From a virus (lineage: Duplodnaviria; Heunggongvirae; Uroviricota; Caudoviricetes): 7,243 bases of DNA. Numbering within the stretch: the stretch's first letter is position 1; each line of letters opens with the position of its first letter. The translations under genes were made by a program, and so were the position numbers. The stretch lies in IMG/VR virus record IMGVR_UViG_2548876950_000015, positions 1 to 7,243 of that record; one strand, given 5' to 3'. The notes beneath the pieces are model-generated. The model was given only the letters and a program-made list of their open reading frames with translations, searched no databases and was not told the DNA's origin. Positions 1 to 7,243 of the stretch are shown piece by piece.

Positions 1-1797
1 TTAGAACTCCTTCACATCTGCGCCAGAAGACACGCTCCAGATCGAAACAGGCGACCCGTTTACACCTATTAACCTTGCTTTCAACCCATTTCCGCTTGCT
101 CTTGGTACGGTTAAATTTGCAGCAGATGGATTCATAGCCCAATCTCCTCCATTTAATATGACACTCATTTCAACTACGCCACCATTATCAATATCTATTA
201 TAGGTGTTTGCACTACCGGGCTTTGTTGATCAATTGGCAGAAAGCCATTGACAATAATAGATGGTCTGAATGATGGGTTTCCCTGAACGCTAACACGAAG
301 TTGCCCACCCTTAACAAATTCTGTTGCACAAGTATTCATGACAATGCAATACGGATTTACAAAATCAAATGCATAGCAAATTGACTCCCCATCCATTGGC
401 GTGCAGTTTTCAGCAGTACAATTGGTCATGGTGGTATATTGCATTCCTGACATTCTAAATGACAACTGGTAACCGTTAACCTGAACAAGGCGCATATCCA
501 TAGAAGTGCCTATTACTTTTATTTGACCATCCCTAAAATCTTCAAATAAAACGCCAGCATATCCTTTCCCTGGATATTGTGGGAAACCGACCATTTCCAT
601 TACGCCAGAGAACGGCACATAAGAGAAGCATCCGATATAAGCACATTCAAAAATTGACTGTCTGATAACTGGTGCTGCTGATTTTCCTAAAAACAGTCCG
701 TAATAATTTCTATAAGAATCTACGTTTTCTTGTGTTAAGCCAAGCCTTCTAAACATGCAGTTTTCAACTCTACCGTTAACACAAAATGAACTCATTGAGT
801 TATCTGTTAGATCCCATTGTTTTGGTATAAAAGCACATAATGCATCCACCTGAAGAATTACTTCTCCATTTTTTGTGAGATCTATTTTGTCATTTGTTGT
901 TTTATAAAAAACTGTCGCTTCAGCCTTTCCCTGTCCTCTAATTCCCATATTGTCATAAATTGGGATTGTTTTTGATGTATTTATGTTTCCAGCAGGAGCC
1001 TCTAGAATGCATTTGTTTGAGCGGGCAAAGTTAGTTGCAAGAGTTATAGCTGTTGCGTTATCTGTGACTCCGTCAGGTTTCACCCCCCAAAATTGCATGT
1101 CGTAAGTGGTAAAATTAATTCGTCTCCATACCATCGTTCCAGTTTCTGGCTTGATTACAATTCCACCATCATCAGCCCACGCCTGAATGTTATCAACAGA
1201 CTCGAAAAAGCCGCCACCAAGGTGGTTTTCAGCATGTGTAGTGCTAGCTGCTGATGCTACGTATACAATCTGCCCTGCCTCCTCCGGAACACAGGAGCGA
1301 AGCTCTGAAAGATTGAGAAAGCGGCCAATAGCGTTAAATCCTGTTTTATCAATTAATGAATCATGTGTAGCTTTCAAGATCTCCAGCTCAATCTTTACGG
1401 TTGTGCCTCCATAACCAACCAGAGATGCGCCATCATGGCCAGAAAGCTCAGCCCTTAACTGATCTGGAGAATATTTCAGTAGATCAGGATAATAGAATTG
1501 TTGTGCACCATACGCATCATACACAGCCATGGAGTGATTCTGTACAGTTACGAACTTGGCAATCTGTCCGTTATATACAGGGTAACCAGCAGCGTTAATG
1601 ATGATTGGTTGCGAAACAGGGACGTGAGAACCATCTTCGTTCTCCACATAAACCTGAATCTGGTTTTCAGGATTTACAGGGTCAGTGTCAATTTTACCAA
1701 TATAAATTTTGCCATTGGCAACCGCTTTAAAAGAACGCGCCATAGTGAAGAGTTGCGAAGGCATCGATACGATCACATTGGCTGTAATGTCTGTCAT
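1..1797 (-). CDS. Tailspike protein: P22 gp9-type head-binding N-terminal domain fused to a divergent receptor-binding domain
   Basis: 598-aa ORF, ATG at 1797-1795 with GGAG about 10 nt upstream, TAA stop at 3-1. The first ~110 residues ([59 protein letters not shown]...KYSPDQ) match, from memory, the conserved head-binding domain of P22 gp9 and the Sf6/HK620 tailspikes. The rest does not resemble the P22 endorhamnosidase body as I recall it. Position after the immI module matches P22 synteny. Confidence 0.88.
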
Positions 1798-1855
1798 TTA
1801 ATTTGCTCCAGATGCAAGGAATCGCCGCAGCATGGCTACGGTGAATTTTGGGCAT

Positions 1856-1880
1856 AAAAAAAAACCCAGCCGAAGCTGGG
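1856..1880 (-). terminator. Rho-independent terminator downstream of the antirepressor-like gene
   Basis: Read on the minus strand: 6-bp GC-rich stem CCCAGC / GCTGGG (1880-1865) with a TTCG loop, followed directly by a run of nine T (plus-strand A-run 1856-1864). Lies about 20 nt after the stop at 1900. Confidence 0.6.
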
Positions 1881-1899
1881 TCGTTGCGTTGGTTATCTG

Positions 1900-2790
1900 T
1901 CAGTAGTTATGTACTGAAGGAGGTAATTCTTTATTCTTAAGTCTCATCCATGCGGAACGATTCGTTGGTCCGTCTGGCTCATTAATATCAACATCTAGTG
2001 TGTGATTGATTAAAACGTCTCTCGCTATATCGATAATACGGGAGAACTCATAACCGCAGTCATGACATCTGCCGGAATAGTTCGATTGAATTTGTTTCAG
2101 CGCCGGATACAATTCGCGGAATAATGCCTGTGAGCGGTTGGCATAATCCCATAACCATACAAGGCTGTTTGCTTCTTTTGCAGAAAGCTCGTTGGTTTTC
2201 TTCTCTTGTTTGCCGATAAATTCACCTTCAAGCACTACCCTGTGGATGTACTCTACGGCCAGCGGGATTTGTTCAATTGAAAGTTCATCAATGCTGTCAA
2301 TACCAAAACGCTGATGAACCATATTGTATGCATCGTCATAGCGAAGTCCTTTCTTTCCTACCAGCATGTTTACTGCATCGCGTAGCGGTGTGCGTTCAGC
2401 TACTGAAGTTTTACCGCCAATACTCTTCCTCTCTTGTGTGGCAGTAACCATTGCGTCATATGCACGGATAACCTTCAGCGCAAATGCTGCGCTAATCCAC
2501 ATGGCGTAGGAGTAAACAAGCTCCTTGCACACGTAGGTTCCACCATATCGACCTTTCTTAGAAAGGACGGGATTCTTATTCTGCATATCCGCAGAATTAA
2601 AAATTTCATTAATCAATTCAATAGTTTCATTTCTACGCATGAAGAAAGCTGGCTGATGTTTTTCCTCCTTTCCAGACGCTACATGAAGGTCATTAAGCGA
2701 GTAACGACCCTCTGAATCCATATGAATCTTGACGTCAGAAATGATGATGCTATTAGTGCAATTTACAGTTGACTTTGCTAAGCTTGACAT
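1900..2790 (-). CDS. KilA-N domain antirepressor-like protein
   Basis: The ORF track extends to 2856, but that start is a GTG overlapping the upstream stop. The ATG at 2790-2788 (MSSLAKS...) has a GAGG 10 nt upstream and puts the KilA-N-like motif ([39 protein letters not shown]) near the N-terminus, as is usual for this family. Family call is from motif recollection only. Position after arc corresponds to ant in P22 immI. Confidence 0.62.
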
Positions 2791-2852
2791 ATCAATAATA
2801 CCTCGTAAGTTTTGTTGATACCGAAGCCCTGACTGTTCCCGCAGTTGGGGCT

Positions 2853-3074
2853 TCACTGTTTTTGTAAGTCACTGTAGCTATAAAGCCACTGACCACTCAT
2901 TTTTGATTTGATTGACTCTACTGAGTCACGGCAAGGAATGATTCCGCCTGACATCATTCTGATCTCCGTAAATTCACCACTCCTTATCGATTCAATGCCA
3001 TCAATGTTAACTAAAGATTTACCTCTACCAAGTGCATTCTCATAGCCAATCTCATCAACCTCAATAAACCTCAT
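2853..3074 (-). CDS. Hypothetical 73-aa protein between arc and the antirepressor-like gene
   Basis: ATG at 3074-3072 overlaps the arc TGA stop (ATGA). A GAGGGG sits about 8 nt upstream. TGA stop at 2855-2853. No family recognised. Confidence 0.4.
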
Positions 3075-3229
3075 GCCGTTATCCCCTCTCTCTTCAGGCT
3101 GTCCAACACTCGCTTGTAAATCTCAGAGTTAACAGATCGCCCGTTCTCTTCAGCTACCTTGCGCACCAAATCCAATACTTCTTTAGGCCACCGCAAATTG
3201 AACTGAGGCATTTTTCTTGCACCTTGCAT
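3071..3229 (-). CDS. arc: Arc-like ribbon-helix-helix transcriptional repressor
   Basis: Manual minus-strand translation gives [52 protein letters not shown] (52 aa), near-identical over the core to P22 Arc as I recall it (MKGMSKMPQFNLRWPREVLDLVRKVAEENGRSVNSEIYQRV...). ATG at 3229-3227 with GGAG 6 nt upstream; TGA at 3073-3071. Missing from the ORF track because it is under 60 aa. An in-frame ATG at 3250 would add 7 residues but has no SD. Confidence 0.85.
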   Translation of the reverse strand: MQGARKMPQFNLRWPKEVLDLVRKVAEENGRSVNSEIYKRVLDSLKREGITA

Positions 3230-3322
3230 ATTCAACTCCATTTCACTCATTGATAGTACCGTACTACTATTGAAAGCGTACTACTACCGTTCTAGCATGT
3301 CAACAAATAAAAGGAGAACGAC
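3230..3322. promoter_or_regulatory. Divergent mnt/arc control region with overlapping candidate promoters and operator-like repeats
   Basis: 93-bp interval between divergent arc and mnt. Inverted repeat TAGTAC-c-GTACTA at 3254-3266 inside GATAGTACCGTACTACTAT (3252-3270), whose flanks resemble the P22 arc operator as I recall it (ATGATAGAAGCACTCTACTAT). Direct repeat CGTACTACTA at 3260-3269 and 3277-3286. Candidate rightward promoter: -35 TTGAAA 3270-3275, -10 TAGCAT 3293-3298. Candidate leftward promoter: -35 TTGACA (complement of 3298-3303), -10 TACGCT (complement of 3275-3280). Confidence 0.5.
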
Positions 3323-3565
3323 GTGGCTAGAAATGATCCACAATTCAACGTAAGAATGCCTGATGAGATAAAACAGCAACTTACGCATATTGCTGCAACA
3401 AATCGCCGCTCGATAAACGCAGAGATTATTTCAGCTATCGAACTATGGATAAAAATTCATAAAGGGCAGCTAATACCTTCAAGTAGTCGAATCCTGACAA
3501 AGTCTGAGCAAGAGGCGTTTGATGTAGCTATTGATGTGTTAAAACGTGTAAGAGATGGAGGATAA
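3323..3565 (+). CDS. mnt: Mnt-like ribbon-helix-helix repressor
   Basis: 80-aa ORF with GTG start at 3323 preceded by AAGGAG (3311-3316). N-terminus MARNDPQFNVRMPDEIKQQL...NRRSINAEI resembles P22 Mnt as I recall it (MARDDPHFNFRMPMEVREKL...NGRSMNSEL). Divergent from arc, as in P22 immI. Confidence 0.85.
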   Translation: MARNDPQFNVRMPDEIKQQLTHIAATNRRSINAEIISAIELWIKIHKGQLIPSSSRILTKSEQEAFDVAIDVLKRVRDGG

Positions 3566-3567
3566 CC

Positions 3568-3801
3568 ATGGAGCAACAACAAGGGTCGCCATTATCATTG
3601 ATTATTATGGTGATTTTTTTCGTTTTTATCTTTTTTATACCTGCGTTAAAAATATCCAAAAAGGCCGGCTTTGACTGGAAGATGGCTGTATGTTTAACAA
3701 TCCCTGGCTTTAACGTGGTGGCGTGGCTCGCGCTTGCGTTCATGGATTGGCCAATTCACAAGTATCTACCAAAAGATGTGAATCGTAAGGATGCAAAATG
3801 A
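3568..3801 (+). CDS. Small two-helix membrane protein, co-transcribed with mnt
   Basis: 77-aa ORF. ATG at 3568 lies 2 nt after the mnt stop, with GGAGG (3557-3561) 6 nt upstream. Hydrophobic stretches LSLIIMVIFFVFIFFIPAL and MAVCLTIPGFNVVAWLALAF, basic C-terminal tail. No family recognised. Confidence 0.6.
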   Translation: MEQQQGSPLSLIIMVIFFVFIFFIPALKISKKAGFDWKMAVCLTIPGFNVVAWLALAFMDWPIHKYLPKDVNRKDAK

Positions 3802-4007
3802 ATAAAAAACAGCTTATTAAGTCAAAAACGTCAAGCAAGGAAGAATTAGAGAAGGAGCTAAACTCCCTGAAATATGCTCTGTGTCTGGTTTACTCAAGAC
3901 TGCCAATGGAAGATAAAAACGCCATTTACAATGAAATGATTAGCAGCCTTGATTTTAACGATAGAGACCTAGCATCCCACCTCAACAGCTTCCGCGTCCC
4001 TGAGTAA
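3798..4007 (+). CDS. Hypothetical 69-aa hydrophilic protein, translationally coupled to the upstream membrane protein
   Basis: ATG at 3798 overlaps the upstream TGA stop (ATGA); AAGGA 6 nt upstream. Charged, helix-prone sequence. TAA stop at 4005-4007. Confidence 0.5.
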   Translation: MNKKQLIKSKTSSKEELEKELNSLKYALCLVYSRLPMEDKNAIYNEMISSLDFNDRDLASHLNSFRVPE

Positions 4008-4167
4008 TTCTGTTGCGGATTTGCTTCTTGCGGTGGTTTAAGCTGGAGAGCTTGGCTTCTGCTTCTGATATTTGCGCATCAAGATCTTTAAGCTCAAGAT
4101 CTGAAAGTCGCTGGTCAAGCAGGGTTTGGTTCAACTCAATGTTGTTCAGGCGTTCTTCTATGGTCAT
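3982..4167 (-). CDS. Hypothetical 61-aa coiled-coil-like protein
   Basis: ATG at 4167-4165 with AAGGAG 5 nt upstream. MTIEERLNNIELNQTLLDQRLSDLELKDLDAQISEAEAKLSSLNHRKK has heptad-like Leu/Ile spacing. The longer track ORF begins at a GTG (4215) with no SD. Its 3' end overlaps the 3' end of the 3798-4007 gene by 26 bp. Confidence 0.4.
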   Translation of the reverse strand: MTIEERLNNIELNQTLLDQRLSDLELKDLDAQISEAEAKLSSLNHRKKQIRNRITQGRGSC

Positions 4168-4308
4168 GATTTCTCCTTGTTGAGGTTGATGTGAAACGAT
4201 TGATTGTATACGCACTCTTTTGTTAGCTAGTAGCTTTGCTTAATCGCAAGATAAAGTTTCTGATTAATCCCTAAAAATCAAAAAATAAAGTTAAAACAGG
4301 TACATGAT
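4168..4308. promoter_or_regulatory. AT-rich divergent intergenic region, presumed promoters for the 3982-4167 (-) and 4309-4512 (+) genes
   Basis: 141-bp AT-rich spacer between two divergently oriented small genes, with several TTG-containing hexamers (for example TTGTTA 4220-4225, TTGCTT 4236-4241). I could not pair a convincing -35/-10 by eye. Confidence 0.3.
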
Positions 4309-4512
4309 ATGGAATGGATCATAGGATTTGTTGTTCTTATCTTCATAGCCAGTATGTTTAAACCAAGAAGTTGCGATATCTGTGGTGCTGGATTTAAGAA
4401 AAAGTACTTCACATGGACTATCGATGGAAAGAAACAGCATCTTTGTCCGTACTGCAACAGTAAAATGGAGAGGCGCAACAGCGATAGGCGCTTTAAGGAT
4501 CGATTTGGTTAA
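4309..4512 (+). CDS. Membrane-anchored zinc-ribbon mini-protein (N-terminal TM helix plus CxxC-x23-CxxC)
   Basis: 67-aa ORF MEWIIGFVVLIFIASMFKPRSCDICGAGFKKKYFTWTIDGKKQHLCPYCNSKMERRNSDRRFKDRFG: one hydrophobic helix, then two Cys pairs (CDIC, CPYC), then an Arg/Lys-rich tail. TAA stop at 4510-4512 is followed about 20 nt later by the terminator hairpin. SD is weak. Confidence 0.55.
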   Translation: MEWIIGFVVLIFIASMFKPRSCDICGAGFKKKYFTWTIDGKKQHLCPYCNSKMERRNSDRRFKDRFG

Positions 4513-4530
4513 CCATTTTATCTCCAACAA

Positions 4531-4560
4531 AAAACCCACCTGACGGTGGGTTTCATTTCT
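4531..4560. terminator. Bidirectional rho-independent terminator between convergent genes
   Basis: Hairpin CCCACC-TGAC-GGTGGG (4535-4550). On the minus strand it is followed by TTTTTTGTTGG (strong, serves the lipoprotein gene ending at 4560). On the plus strand it is followed by TTTCATTTCT (weaker, serves the 4309-4512 gene). Confidence 0.7.
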
Positions 4561-4979
4561 TAATCTTGCTTTGTAGACGGTATAAGGGATGCGTTTGCCT
4601 CTTTTGGCTTCAAGGTATACATCCCACCATTAAATGGATCAACAGCAAGCCAACCAATTAACCCACCAAACACAAGGTTTCCACCAATATACCAACCATT
4701 AGCATTGGCTTTGATTGGCAGGGTAACTGGTTCGTACCCATCCTTTTCCATAGTGATCTGGTAACTCTTTTTGCCAAAATAACTACCATCTGACTTGGCA
4801 AGAGTTACTCCTTGTGGGGTCTTACCTTGCGCAACAATCACGCCTGATTCGTCTTTTACCTTAAAGCTCGCACCGGAAGGATTGCTGTTCACTTGCACAA
4901 GCTGTGTTTCGTCACCAACAATAGTTGCGCACCCAGATAACATGATAGCGCCAGCAACGACGCCAATAATCCTCTTCAT
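4560..4979 (-). CDS. Lipoprotein with a PEGA-like beta-rich domain and a Gly-rich C-terminal segment
   Basis: Signal peptide with lipobox: MKRIIGVVAGAIMLSGC. The track ORF starts 4 codons earlier (ATG 4991, MEID...) with no SD; ATG at 4979 gives the canonical lipoprotein N-terminus. The mature region (NSNPSGASFKVKD...GKTP...ITMEKDGYEP) resembles a PEGA-type fold by motif recollection. C-terminus GWYIGGNLVFGGLIGWLAVDP is Gly-zipper-like. TAA stop at 4562-4560, then the strong terminator. Confidence 0.7.
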   Translation of the reverse strand: MKRIIGVVAGAIMLSGCATIVGDETQLVQVNSNPSGASFKVKDESGVIVAQGKTPQGVTLAKSDGSYFGKKSYQITMEKDGYEPVTLPIKANANGWYIGGNLVFGGLIGWLAVDPFNGGMYTLKPKEANASLIPSTKQD

Positions 4980-5074
4980 ATCAATTTCCATATCTAAAAA
5001 ACCGGAAACATCCTAATGACAAACCATTCAAATGTGAAGCACGAGATAAGATCAATCCATCCGTGGACGACTAA

Positions 5075-7243
5075 TTACTCCTGTGTCATTCCGCTTAGCG
5101 ATGCCACAATCCCAGCCCTCGACAAACGCTGGAACTCTTCGTTTCCTAGTGCATCGCGAATTGCTTTTACGGCGGCCTTATTTGCCATAAATCTGCGTTC
5201 CGCCGCCGCTAATGCGCCATCACTTGCCCCAACCTTAACTGCCTTTGTTGCCTCTTGAACAGCCTTTTCAATAGCGTAACGACCACTTCTGGTTGCGGAT
5301 AATTTCGCTATCGATCCTTTTGCTATCGCATCAATTGCTCCACCAGCAGCGCCACCCACTATTGCTCCAATAACACCTCCTCCAGAGAACCCTGCGATAG
5401 CGCCAGCGGTTGGAAAAGCGCCAGACAATACGCTCTCTAAAACTGGATGAAGGCCATTCTCAAGAGTGCTAATGGCTGGCATAGAGCGCCCTGTTTGTTC
5501 AACATATCGAAGTGGCTTTGTTGCAGCTCTTGCAAGTTCTCCGTATGAACTTGTAATCCTGCCAAGTTCTGGAGAATATCGACTAATTGCCTTCACGTTT
5601 TGTGGGGTAAGAATAGTCGCGATATGCTTAATTCCAGCTCCTTCAGACTTACCTCCGCGTACCCCTTGCGATACCGCATCTTGTAATATTGATGCAATTG
5701 CTGGCGCGCGTTCCGACTCAGGTAGGGCGCTTATTATTTTATGGAACTGACCTGTTCCACTTTTTGCTGAACCCTGTAACGCCTTAGATCCATTAGTTAC
5801 CAACTGATCAGTTGCAAGGTCTCTACCAAACGCTGCTTCAGCCTGTTCTTGTGCTGTAAATCTTGCCTTTGACAGATCATTAGCTTTTTGCCAGTCATCA
5901 AGAAAATCGCCATTTTGAGCCATTATGCGCATATCTTCCGTTGCTGCATCACGAAGCTCAGCCATGCGCCTTGCCGTATTTGCCTCACCAGACCTTATAT
6001 ACTTCTGCTCTGCGTCAGCAAGTTTACTTCGCCATGCCTTCATGGCATCAAACGTGATTCCTTTTTTACCAGTTTTAGCATAAGCAGATGCGAATTGTTT
6101 CATCTCAGGAGTTAGCGGCATGCCAGCCAAAATATCACCCTGAATTGTAGCGTTCAGGTTTGACATTCTGGCCTTTGCGTCAGGCATCGTGGAGCGGACG
6201 CTATCCCATGCGGCCTTTTCTGAATTTTTCATTTTATCAATACTTGCCAAAACCCTTTGTTTTATGGCTGCACTTTTTTCTGATGCAGTTCCTGCTTCAG
6301 CCCCAAACTCATCCAATGCTGAGTTAAATTTCGACTCTATTTCACTGAATGCTTTGGTGTGTGCATCCTGTGTAATTCCGGGCTTTGATGCCAGAATCCC
6401 CTCCGCCTGAGCAAGACCACGACTACCTGATCTCATGCCAGGAGTTAATGCGTTGATATCTATTCCAGCAGTATCTGCTGCTTTTGCTATTTCGTCTGAC
6501 ACATTAGCTGACTGTCTGGCAATAATCTCTCTTCCTGTACCAGACTTTGCCATTTTCGAAACATCAGCAGCGGAATTTATTGCCCCGCCACCAAGAACTT
6601 GAGGTGATTTAGAGGTTAAGATCCTTCCAGCCCCAGAAAGTATCCCCTGAGCACCAATATTGATACCACCGTTAATGGCAGCATTTTGTGCAAAGTCGCC
6701 CTCCTGATTTGCAGCATCAGCAAGAGAACCTGCAATCATGTTTCCTGCGGAACCGATATCTCCAGCGAGCTTTGCTGGCGCTCCAGCAGCTTTTGCCGCT
6801 GTGCCAATTGGCAGGAGATACCCACCAATTGTTTCACCGGCTTGCGCGTAAGGGTCTGTCGGTCGATCGACAGGGCGATAAACATCATCCAAAACCTTGG
6901 GGCCGCCAAGCCCCTGGCTGATTGCATTAATCAGACTTGCGCCACCCTGCAATACGTCAAATGGTATGTTTACCAGACCACGACCAGCCTGTTCTGCAAT
7001 TTGCCCTGCACTTTGACCACCTGTGAGCCAATCACCAGCTTGTTGCATCAATGATGGTTCTTCTTTCTGCTGCTGAGGCGGAGGGTATGCTGCATAAAAC
7101 TGATCTCTTGCTTCAGCCCATTTGTCACCAGCCTTAGGGGCAACAACCTCATCAAAATATTGCGCTTGAGCCTGTGCTTTCTGTTCTTCAGTTAACGCCT
7201 GATACTGTGGAGAAGCGATAACATCTTTCCATGCTTTAGCCAT
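5075..7243 (-). CDS. Phage DNA-ejection / DNA-transfer protein (P22 gp16/gp20-like by position and composition)
   Basis: 722-aa ORF; ATG at the window edge (7243-7241), so the true N-terminus may lie outside the window. TAA stop at 5077-5075. Ala/Gly/Gln-rich, low-complexity and helix-prone, with a Gly-zipper segment ([31 protein letters not shown]) near the C-terminus. It sits on the distal side of the accessory island, where P22 has gene 16. Product assignment is by synteny and composition, not by remembered sequence identity. Confidence 0.6.

Follow-up and report, generated by a model that had tools for sequence, protein, structure and literature searches.

Two predicted operators in the divergent arc–mnt control region of an Emek-type phage and an immI specificity likely to be separate from that of P22

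The arc–mnt locus and its intergenic spacer

The DNA analyzed here is a stretch of 7,243 bp (positions 1 to 7,243 of the virus record IMGVR_UViG_2548876950_000015, referred to as the window), which shares 99.8% identity with the Salmonella phage vB_SemP_Emek and represents the immI region of this phage. The GenBank record of Emek places the tailspike gene, ant, orf73 and arc on one strand and mnt divergently on the other. The arc gene (3071–3229, minus strand) encodes a protein of 52 amino acids, which matches the Pfam family Arc, PF03869 (E=1.6e-26), and the PDB entries 1arq and 1par (E=1.3e-23). The mnt-like gene (3323–3565, plus strand) has a GTG start and encodes a protein of 80 amino acids that matches PF03869 (E=1.8e-12) and finds its best PDB match in 1mnt (E=1.1e-5). 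The arc start codon ATG at 3229 and the mnt start codon GTG at 3323 leave a spacer of 93 bp (3230–3322), in agreement with the Emek annotation and with the coordinates given in a first-pass annotation of the window, whose described sequence features were all confirmed at their positions. The divergent arc(-ant)/mnt pair is flanked by the ejection-protein and tailspike genes of a P22-like phage. The spacer itself constitutes the immI control region of such a phage for both directions of transcription.

Nearest to arc lies the leader of the arc mRNA (3230–3249, minus strand). It contains the Shine-Dalgarno sequence GGAG (3239→3236) and varies more among close relatives than any other part of the spacer. 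The leader is followed by a palindromic 21-bp site (3250–3270), referred to as site 1, the predicted equivalent of the P22 Mnt operator Omnt. Its core is the inverted repeat TAGTAC-c-GTACTA (3254–3266, centered at 3260), flanked by GATAG (3252–3256) and CTACTAT (3264–3270) as initially described, and it extends imperfectly into arms of 13 nt (3247–3259 and 3261–3273) that are 77% complementary. A further ATG in frame with arc is found at 3250 on the minus strand, within the palindrome, and would lengthen Arc by seven residues (MSEMELN-); the GGAG at 3239–3236 and the alignment with P22 favor the start at 3229. Site 2 (3278–3298, centered at 3288), which reads ATGCTAGAACGGTAGTAGTAC on the minus strand, is the predicted 21-bp equivalent of the Arc operator Oarc. 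The element CGTACTACTA occurs exactly twice in the window, at 3260–3269 and 3277–3286 on the plus strand, and the distance of 17 bp reported for the second copy holds when counted from start to start. The first copy covers the palindrome center, the mnt-proximal half and three flanking bases, while the second consists of the distal half of site 2 and four bases of the leftward −10 hexamer. By chance 0.10 matches would be expected, and at least two copies appeared in one of 200 shuffles. A scan of the window for TAGTACNGTACTA with up to two mismatches returned only 3254–3266 and 3282–3294. The cores of the two sites are identical at 11 of 13 positions and have AC-[C/G]-GT in common.

Two promoters can be placed on opposite strands of nearly the same DNA, an arrangement that is known from P22 and that the first-pass annotation had proposed here. 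The rightward promoter of mnt, Pmnt, consists of TTGAAA (3270–3275; TTGAGA in P22) and TAGCAT (3293–3298; TATCAT in P22) at a distance of 17 bp, and is the sole sigma-70-like site from a scan of positions 2800–3900 (9/12). The leftward promoter of the arc-ant operon, Pant, consists of TTGACA (3303→3298), which is identical in nearly all related loci examined, and TACGCT (3280→3275; TATATT in P22), also 17 bp apart. It was not listed by the promoter scan because its −10 hexamer matches the consensus at 3/6 positions only; its assignment is based on homology, and the strength of the promoter is uncertain. The Shine-Dalgarno sequence of mnt, GGAG (3313–3316, plus strand), lies 6 nt 5′ of the GTG start.

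The operators and promoters are tightly interlocked. Site 1 covers the predicted start region of Pant (about 3268) and ends on the base with which the Pmnt −35 hexamer opens; the remainder of this hexamer is provided by the gap between the sites. Site 2 sits between the −35 and −10 hexamers of both promoters; its positions 1–6 are the reverse complement of the Pmnt −10 hexamer (TAnnnT in every type of locus described below), and its positions 19–21 form the beginning of the Pant −10 hexamer. Under the P22 paradigm, the proposal that a repressor at either repeat could gate both promoters would apply to site 2, which overlaps both, but not to the palindrome, which overlaps the leftward start only and abuts the rightward −35 hexamer. 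Within the Emek type, the segment 3258–3303 shows only four singleton variants among 10 distinct spacers. The half-site of the palindrome occurs in this type as TAGTAC, TATTAC or TAGCAC, and the same three variants stand side by side in Acinetobacter.

Transcription of arc would place the palindrome at the 5′ end of the mRNA. Its repeats might not bind protein at all and could instead have arisen by chance or form a hairpin in the RNA of the arc leader. We regard this as extremely improbable, as the motifs are confined to the spacer, show conservation and change together with the repressor proteins (see below). The hairpin explanation was rejected after folding of the arc leader, which folds no better than its shuffled versions (−4.0 kcal/mol, z = 0.31).

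Collinearity with the P22 control region

For P22, the immI region and the annotation of its promoters and protein-binding sites came from BK000583 and X01916; P22, epsilon34, the window and the E. coli phage N7 were then aligned. The alignment is gapless from the Pant −35 hexamer through both operators. The Pant hexamers of the window align base for base with the annotated Pant hexamers of P22, and the overlapping pair of divergent sigma-70 promoters runs collinear with Pant and Pmnt of P22. Oarc of P22, ATGATAGAAGCACTCTACTAT, located between the Pant −35 and −10 hexamers, corresponds to window positions 3298→3278 on the minus strand (ATGCTAGAACGGTAGTAGTAC). The P22 Mnt operator (..AGGTCCACGGTGGACCT..) corresponds to 3270→3250 (ATAGTAGTACGGTACTATCAA), that is, to the palindrome, and the central ACGGT is conserved between P22 Omnt and site 1. 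The distance between the centers of the two sites is 28 bp in both P22 and the window. The gapless alignment thus places the palindrome at the position of Omnt and not at that of Oarc.

The first-pass annotation had recommended an alignment with P22 and its relatives and had described the palindrome as resembling the P22 arc operator. The alignment revealed a collinear control region, but one in which the palindrome falls on Omnt and the Oarc position is taken by 3278–3298. The resemblance itself exists: site 1 matches P22 Oarc at 15/21 positions, the best match in the window. The half-site hexamers of site 1 (GAT|AGT and AGT|AGT) are similar to those of P22 (GAT|AGA and AGT|AGA) and have the same 11-bp spacing, with TAGT in both boxes where P22 Oarc has inverted TAGA boxes, and the DNA-contacting β-strand of Arc is the same as in P22. 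One might therefore suppose that the palindrome is the Arc operator and that binding of Arc to it, to the second repeat or to both would gate the two promoters. We consider this highly unlikely. The palindrome lies at the Omnt position, 3′ of the Pant −10 hexamer. A match of at least 15/21 to P22 Oarc was found somewhere in 42 of 200 whole-window shuffles (21%), and the match was for this reason set aside as evidence of Arc binding; the resemblance is real but weak evidence, which matters only through falling inside the spacer. The class of the palindrome also shifts with Mnt while Arc stays constant (L141 versus L143 and Emek versus L093, see below), persists at loci with unrelated partner genes (L020/L022 and L019), and persists without arc in ST64T. 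The palindrome thus does not behave as an Arc operator either in position, being downstream of the Pant −10 hexamer, or in following the Arc allele; its class follows Mnt.

The two repressors

Emek Arc belongs to the 53-aa class of ribbon-helix-helix (RHH) proteins and shares 81% identity with P22 Arc. The β-strand PQFNLRW, with Gln9, Asn11 and Arg13, is identical in both proteins, while the N-terminal arm reads MQGARK in place of MKGMSK. In each half-site, Gln9, Asn11 and Arg13 of Arc contact six base pairs (PMC12645479), and the N-terminal arm of Arc contributes to operator binding (PMC3325190). Chain G of the PDB entry 9pio, a protein of 79 amino acids named 'Arc family DNA-binding protein', also matches Emek Arc (E=1.2e-22).

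The Mnt-like protein of Emek has an N-terminal RHH domain whose first residues are (M/V)ARNDPQFNVRMP, and its match to PDB 1mnt covers residues 2–40 (E=1.1e-5). Its C-terminal part has no sequence similarity to the C-terminus of P22 Mnt. As regards the C-terminal helix through which Mnt forms its tetramer, a helix at residues 60–78 was predicted in a single-sequence AlphaFold2 model, with low confidence (mean predicted local distance difference test score, pLDDT, of 54). Among the Mnt classes, the Emek Mnt strand is the most Arc-like. The explanation that the change of His6 to Gln makes Mnt Arc-like and hence gives it an Arc-like operator was rejected, as the Mnt proteins of ST64T and the L144 type have Gln6, Asn8 and Arg10 and yet use AGACCAC operators. 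On this comparison, Gln6 of Emek Mnt alone is insufficient to explain the TAGTAC operator.

Covariation of operators and repressors among immI types

In total, 71 non-identical related loci were compared. They were obtained from scans of viral contigs with Mnt and three Arc variants, from annotated phages and from E. coli prophages, and are denoted by L numbers. Scans of metagenomes and of GTDB genomes with Mnt yielded seven and three confirmed loci, respectively, and added locus L044 and the Brenneria loci but little else. All seven natural types share a common scaffold, which is composed of TTGACA, the 21-bp site 2, a 7-bp gap, the 21-bp site 1, the leader and arc.

Throughout these loci, four classes of the Mnt strand pair one-to-one with four classes of site 1, without exception. 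The strand PHFNFR is found with GGTCCAC-N-GTGGACC, PQFNVR with TAG[TC]AC-N-GT[AG][CA]TA, PQFKLR with GAACCAC-N-GTGGT[TC]C, and PQFNLR with AGACCAC-N-GTGGTCT. Similarly, the Arc arm classes MKGMSK, MKGASK, M[QI]GAR[KN] and MK[DG]AR[KT] are each associated with one class of site 2.

The P22 type combines the Arc arm MKGMSK and the Mnt strand PHFNFR with TAGAAG-C-ACTCTA as site 2 and GGTCCAC-N-GTGGACC as site 1. The type represented by L085, L137 and L138 has the same Mnt strand and site 1, together with the arm MKGASK and the site 2 TAGGAC-[CG]-ATG[GC]TA. The Emek type, which includes N7 and L143, has the arm MQGARK and the strand PQFNVR, with TAGAAC-G-GTAGTA as site 2 and TAG[TC]AC-G-GT[AG]CTA as site 1. 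L094 (arm MQGARN) and L132 (arm MIGARK) share the strand PQFNVR and carry Emek-like variants of both sites. Type C (L093, L096, L103, L131 and L141) has the arm MQGARK and the strand PQFKLR, within the Mnt N-terminus MSREDPQFKLR, and contains TATAAC-G-GTGATA as site 2 and GAACCAC-N-GTGGTTC as site 1. The type L144–L150 has MK[DG]AR[KT] and PQFNLR, with TATTAC-G-GTG[GA]TA as site 2 and AGACCAC-G-GTGGTCT as site 1.

The two proteins reassort naturally, as is evident from L141 versus L143 and from P22 versus L137, and the sites follow them. L141 and L143 have the same Arc (the first 30 amino acids are identical) but a different Mnt, and site 1 differs accordingly. Emek and L093 are alike in the arm DNA (21/21) and in site 2 (16/21) and differ in site 1 (10/21) and mnt (24/39). 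The P22-type Mnt and the P22-type site 1 occur with either a MKGMSK or a MKGASK Arc, and site 2 changes with the arm. Site 1 physically adjoins arc and site 2 adjoins mnt; each of them tracks the gene on the far side. Simple linkage would give the reverse pattern, and the observed one speaks for a functional coupling and against hitch-hiking.

In one of the loci, L109, a 36-bp insertion interrupts a P22-type Mnt operator at about 575–700 (arc-sense strand), and CCACCGTGGA is duplicated, with a copy to each side. An operator may here have been disrupted or duplicated naturally.

Assignment of the two sites

We propose that site 1 is the Mnt operator and site 2 the Arc operator of a divergent immI switch whose specificity is separate from that of P22, and estimate the probability of this interpretation at roughly two in three. 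The palindrome most likely serves as the Mnt operator in an immI type of distinct specificity: its position over the Pant start, its covariation with Mnt and its persistence next to unrelated partner genes all point to Mnt. Site 2 has the position of an Arc operator and its class follows the class of the Arc arm; it lacks the inverted TAGA boxes seen in P22, and the independent events behind the association are few. Because both operators and the N-terminal DNA-reading segments of both proteins differ from those of P22, a separate specificity is suggested, and the comparison of the loci thereby lends support to the earlier suggestion of a distinct immI specificity.

A different allocation, in which both sites are Mnt operators, one strong and symmetric and the other weaker and autoregulatory, would leave Arc to bind elsewhere or through the half-site TAGAAC only. 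Distant relatives with two or three near-copies upstream of an Mnt-like gene (Acinetobacter L024/L029 and L047) and the presence of AC-[C/G]-GT, the core typical of Mnt-family operators, in both sites speak for this allocation. In each of its halves (TACTAC and TAGAAC), however, site 2 departs at one conserved position from the half-sites tolerated by Mnt (TA[G/T][T/C]AC). Moreover, site 2 is alike in Emek and type C, which share Arc and not Mnt, and in P22-type loci it varies with the Arc arm while Mnt is constant. We thus see little chance that site 2 belongs to Mnt.

The similarity of the two sites also raises the question of whether the operators are shared. The two repressors, with the strands PQFNLR and PQFNVR, could both read rrTAGT, so that each binds both sites, which contain four hexamers with dyads at about 3254.5, 3265.5, 3282.5 and 3293.5, spaced by 11, 17 and 11 bp. 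Discrimination would then come from the arrangement of the half-sites or from the concentration of the proteins. Three of the four hexamers conform to (A/G)(G/A)TAGT, the exact 10-mer TAGTAGTACG is found in both sites, the cores agree at the 11 of 13 positions mentioned above, and the Mnt strand is the most Arc-like one; other RHH proteins are also known to bind direct as well as inverted repeats, as in the ParG boxes (PMC3413123). The exact 10-mer repeat is nevertheless restricted to the Emek/N7/L143 group; the sister types L094, L132 and C have not conserved it. In type C, site 2 keeps the distal GATAGTAC although the Mnt half-site of this type, GAACCAC, is unrelated to site 2, which implies that this element belongs to Arc or to the promoter and not to Mnt. 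The Mnt proteins of ST64T and L144, with the Gln-Asn-Arg triad, use GACCAC, and the triad alone does not dictate TAGTAC. Sharing of the operators by both repressors is for these reasons judged unlikely. On one strand, the distal hexamer of site 2 (AGT|AGT) resembles an Arc hexamer in direct orientation. An Arc half-site turned round in this way would fit Emek, L132 and type C (rrTAGT) but neither L094 (AATATT) nor L137 (inverted AGTAGC).

A more speculative extension, which we hold to be doubtful, is that the paralogous repressors have converged on nearly the same strand and on rrTAGT, and that the four hexamers with their 11-17-11 bp spacing form one composite array. It would further require, and this again appears to be a minor possibility, that Arc and Mnt tell the sites apart by orientation, site 1 being inverted and site 2 direct or hybrid, or that they cross-bind deliberately. 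If true, such an array would be the natural counterpart of the engineered Arc/Mnt hybrids.

Several observations weigh against the assignment of site 1 to Mnt and of site 2 to Arc. Arc might also bind site 1, because of the 15/21 match to P22 Oarc, the 11-bp spacing of the TAG hexamers and the same Gln-Asn-Arg strand, and Mnt might also bind site 2, because the cores are so nearly identical and AC-[C/G]-GT is common to both. Site 2 is a poor inverted repeat (TAGAAC/TACTAC) and gives an Arc tetramer no obvious way of sitting on it. The leftward −10 hexamer TACGCT is weak. The independent reassortment events are few, roughly two to four, and common descent may account for part of the association of the arm with site 2. 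The literature searched yielded no footprint, transcript or binding data for Emek.

Distribution of the palindrome class beyond immI

Across the loci, TAGTACNGTACTA with up to two mismatches gave 48 matches in 4,030 bp of upstream sequence versus 3 in 87,157 bp elsewhere. The palindrome class is retained at distant loci that encode an Mnt-like protein with the N-terminus MAR[NT]DPQFNVRMP next to unrelated divergent RHH partners (..IPPTSIRLP in L020/L022 and ..KTSTIRLP in L019; also the Brenneria loci L018/L027). These loci keep GATAG[TC]AC-N-GTA[CA]TAC about 70–77 bp upstream of the Mnt-like start. In Acinetobacter loci, two or three copies of TA[GT][TC]AC-N-GTACTA are present. ST64T has lost arc and ant, but mnt is still preceded by a palindrome, which belongs to a class of its own.

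In L024/L029 (Acinetobacter populi and phages), L047 and L018/L027 (Brenneria alni), a gene for a MARNDPQFN[LV]R protein is preceded by TA[GT][TC]AC-N-GTACTA in two or three copies. These distant divergent RHH gene pairs lie outside the P22-like phages; the operator type is far more widespread than immI. Locus L025 contains a perfect palindrome, TAGAAC-C-GTTCTA, about 75 bp upstream of the start of an Mnt-like MARNDPQFNLRIS protein; this palindrome amounts to a symmetric form of one half of site 2 of the window, the promoter-proximal one.

Proposed regulation

The P22 paradigm of immI, which is said to go back to Sauer et al. 1983 and Vershon et al. 1985 and 1987, can be carried over to the Emek locus. 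The model builds on the anatomy of the spacer, its collinearity with P22 and the covariation of sites and proteins, all of which are observed directly. Binding, stoichiometry, start sites and the signs of regulation we infer from P22. Pant would drive arc-orf73-ant leftward and Pmnt would drive mnt rightward, and two 21-bp RHH operators would control both promoters. On infection, Pant would fire and Arc, Orf73 and Ant would be made. Arc produced from Pant would then bind site 2, and as this site lies between the −35 and −10 hexamers of both promoters, Arc would turn both of them off. In the lysogen, Mnt expressed from Pmnt would bind site 1, cover the start region of Pant and switch off antirepressor synthesis. 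Pmnt would be spared or stimulated by Mnt, because site 1 ends at the Pmnt −35 hexamer. The sar RNA would add an antisense layer of control on ant.

Neighboring genes and occurrence in E. coli

The sar RNA is the third regulator in the P22 immI circuit. In the window, it was identified at 2792–2857 on the plus strand (Rfam RF00262, 61.7 bits versus a gathering score of 43). The RNA runs antisense to the junction of orf73 and ant and to the ribosome-binding site of ant (ATG at 2790, Shine-Dalgarno sequence GAGG), and its terminator hairpin (2823–2854) is conserved with that of P22 sar. The gene orf73 (2853–3074, minus strand) is inserted between arc and ant, with an overlap of 4 nt at the arc stop, so that sar no longer abuts arc, unlike in P22. 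Its product gave no match in Pfam, and P22 has no orf73. The same insertion is found in the E. coli prophages L030, L031 and L034.

The antirepressor gene ant (1900–2856, minus strand) encodes a protein with a KilA-N domain and a P22AR C-terminal domain, and not the N-terminus of P22 Ant. Mechanically, its open reading frame extends upstream to a GTG at 2856; the position of sar favors the ATG at 2790. The Emek antirepressor is flagged 'Defective?' in GenBank. The ant moron is highly variable among P22-like phages (PMC2629481; PMC8022706).

The Emek-type arc-spacer-mnt segment (window positions 3091–3457) is present over at least 80% of its length in 75 of 5,426 complete E. coli genomes, always on the chromosome. 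About 170 further complete E. coli genomes match the arc part only, and the five arc-only loci that were examined (L030–L034) have P22-type spacers. By these genome counts, the Emek-type immI is common.

Significance and comparison with known systems

The immI region decides whether a superinfecting P22-like phage expresses its antirepressor in a lysogen and induces the resident prophages. Distinct specificities of Arc, Mnt and their operators would accordingly define phages that are blind to each other's control. On a single fixed scaffold, the types described here form a natural series of alleles with at least four pairs of Mnt and operator and four classes of Arc arm and operator. The series offers material for studying how β-sheet DNA readers change their specificity and is a source of orthogonal small repressor-operator pairs. 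No description of the operator motif or of the Emek immI region was found in the literature searched. The Emek locus is a new allelic member of a well-known system and not a new mechanism, and the accepted picture of immI is unchanged.

The closest known system is the immI region of P22. Both regions have the order mnt, divergent arc-ant and tailspike gene, contain sar, and have spacers of similar length (93 bp in the window versus 90 bp in P22). They also share the −35 hexamer TTGACA, the overlapping divergent promoters and two 21-bp sites centered 28 bp apart. They differ in the sites themselves, as Emek site 1 matches its P22 counterpart at 9/21 and site 2 at 12/21 positions. The Arc arm is MQGARK in Emek versus MKGMSK in P22, and Emek Mnt is 33% identical to P22 Mnt, has the strand PQFNVR versus PHFNFR and an unrelated C-terminal part. 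Unlike P22, Emek has a weaker Pant −10 hexamer (TACGCT versus TATATT), a site 2 that is not a clean inverted repeat, and the additional orf73 between arc and ant. The other natural immI types, among them the arc-less mnt remnant of ST64T/L, have the same architecture and promoter-operator overlap as Emek, each with its own site 1 and/or site 2. Of all these types, it is the Emek type whose predicted Mnt operator (TAGTAC-N-GTACTA) is most like an Arc operator.

Operator choice in the Arc/Mnt family is set by a short N-terminal segment. Engineered Arc/Mnt hybrid repressors were reportedly made by Knight & Sauer 1989 (PNAS 86:797) and by Raumann, Knight & Sauer 1995 (Nat Struct Biol 2:1115). The alleles of the Emek series are comparable to these hybrids in that they differ in the same N-terminal segment and their operators differ alongside. 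In contrast to the hybrids, they are natural alleles, and their specificity is deduced from covariation only.

RHH dimers such as ParG, omega, CopG and MetJ bind short repeats about one helical turn apart. The repeats may be in direct or inverted orientation, as in the ParG boxes (PMC3413123). Unlike the Emek operators, the multi-repeat operators of ParG, omega, CopG and MetJ serve in plasmid partition, copy control or metabolism, and they have no homology to the Emek region in sequence or context.

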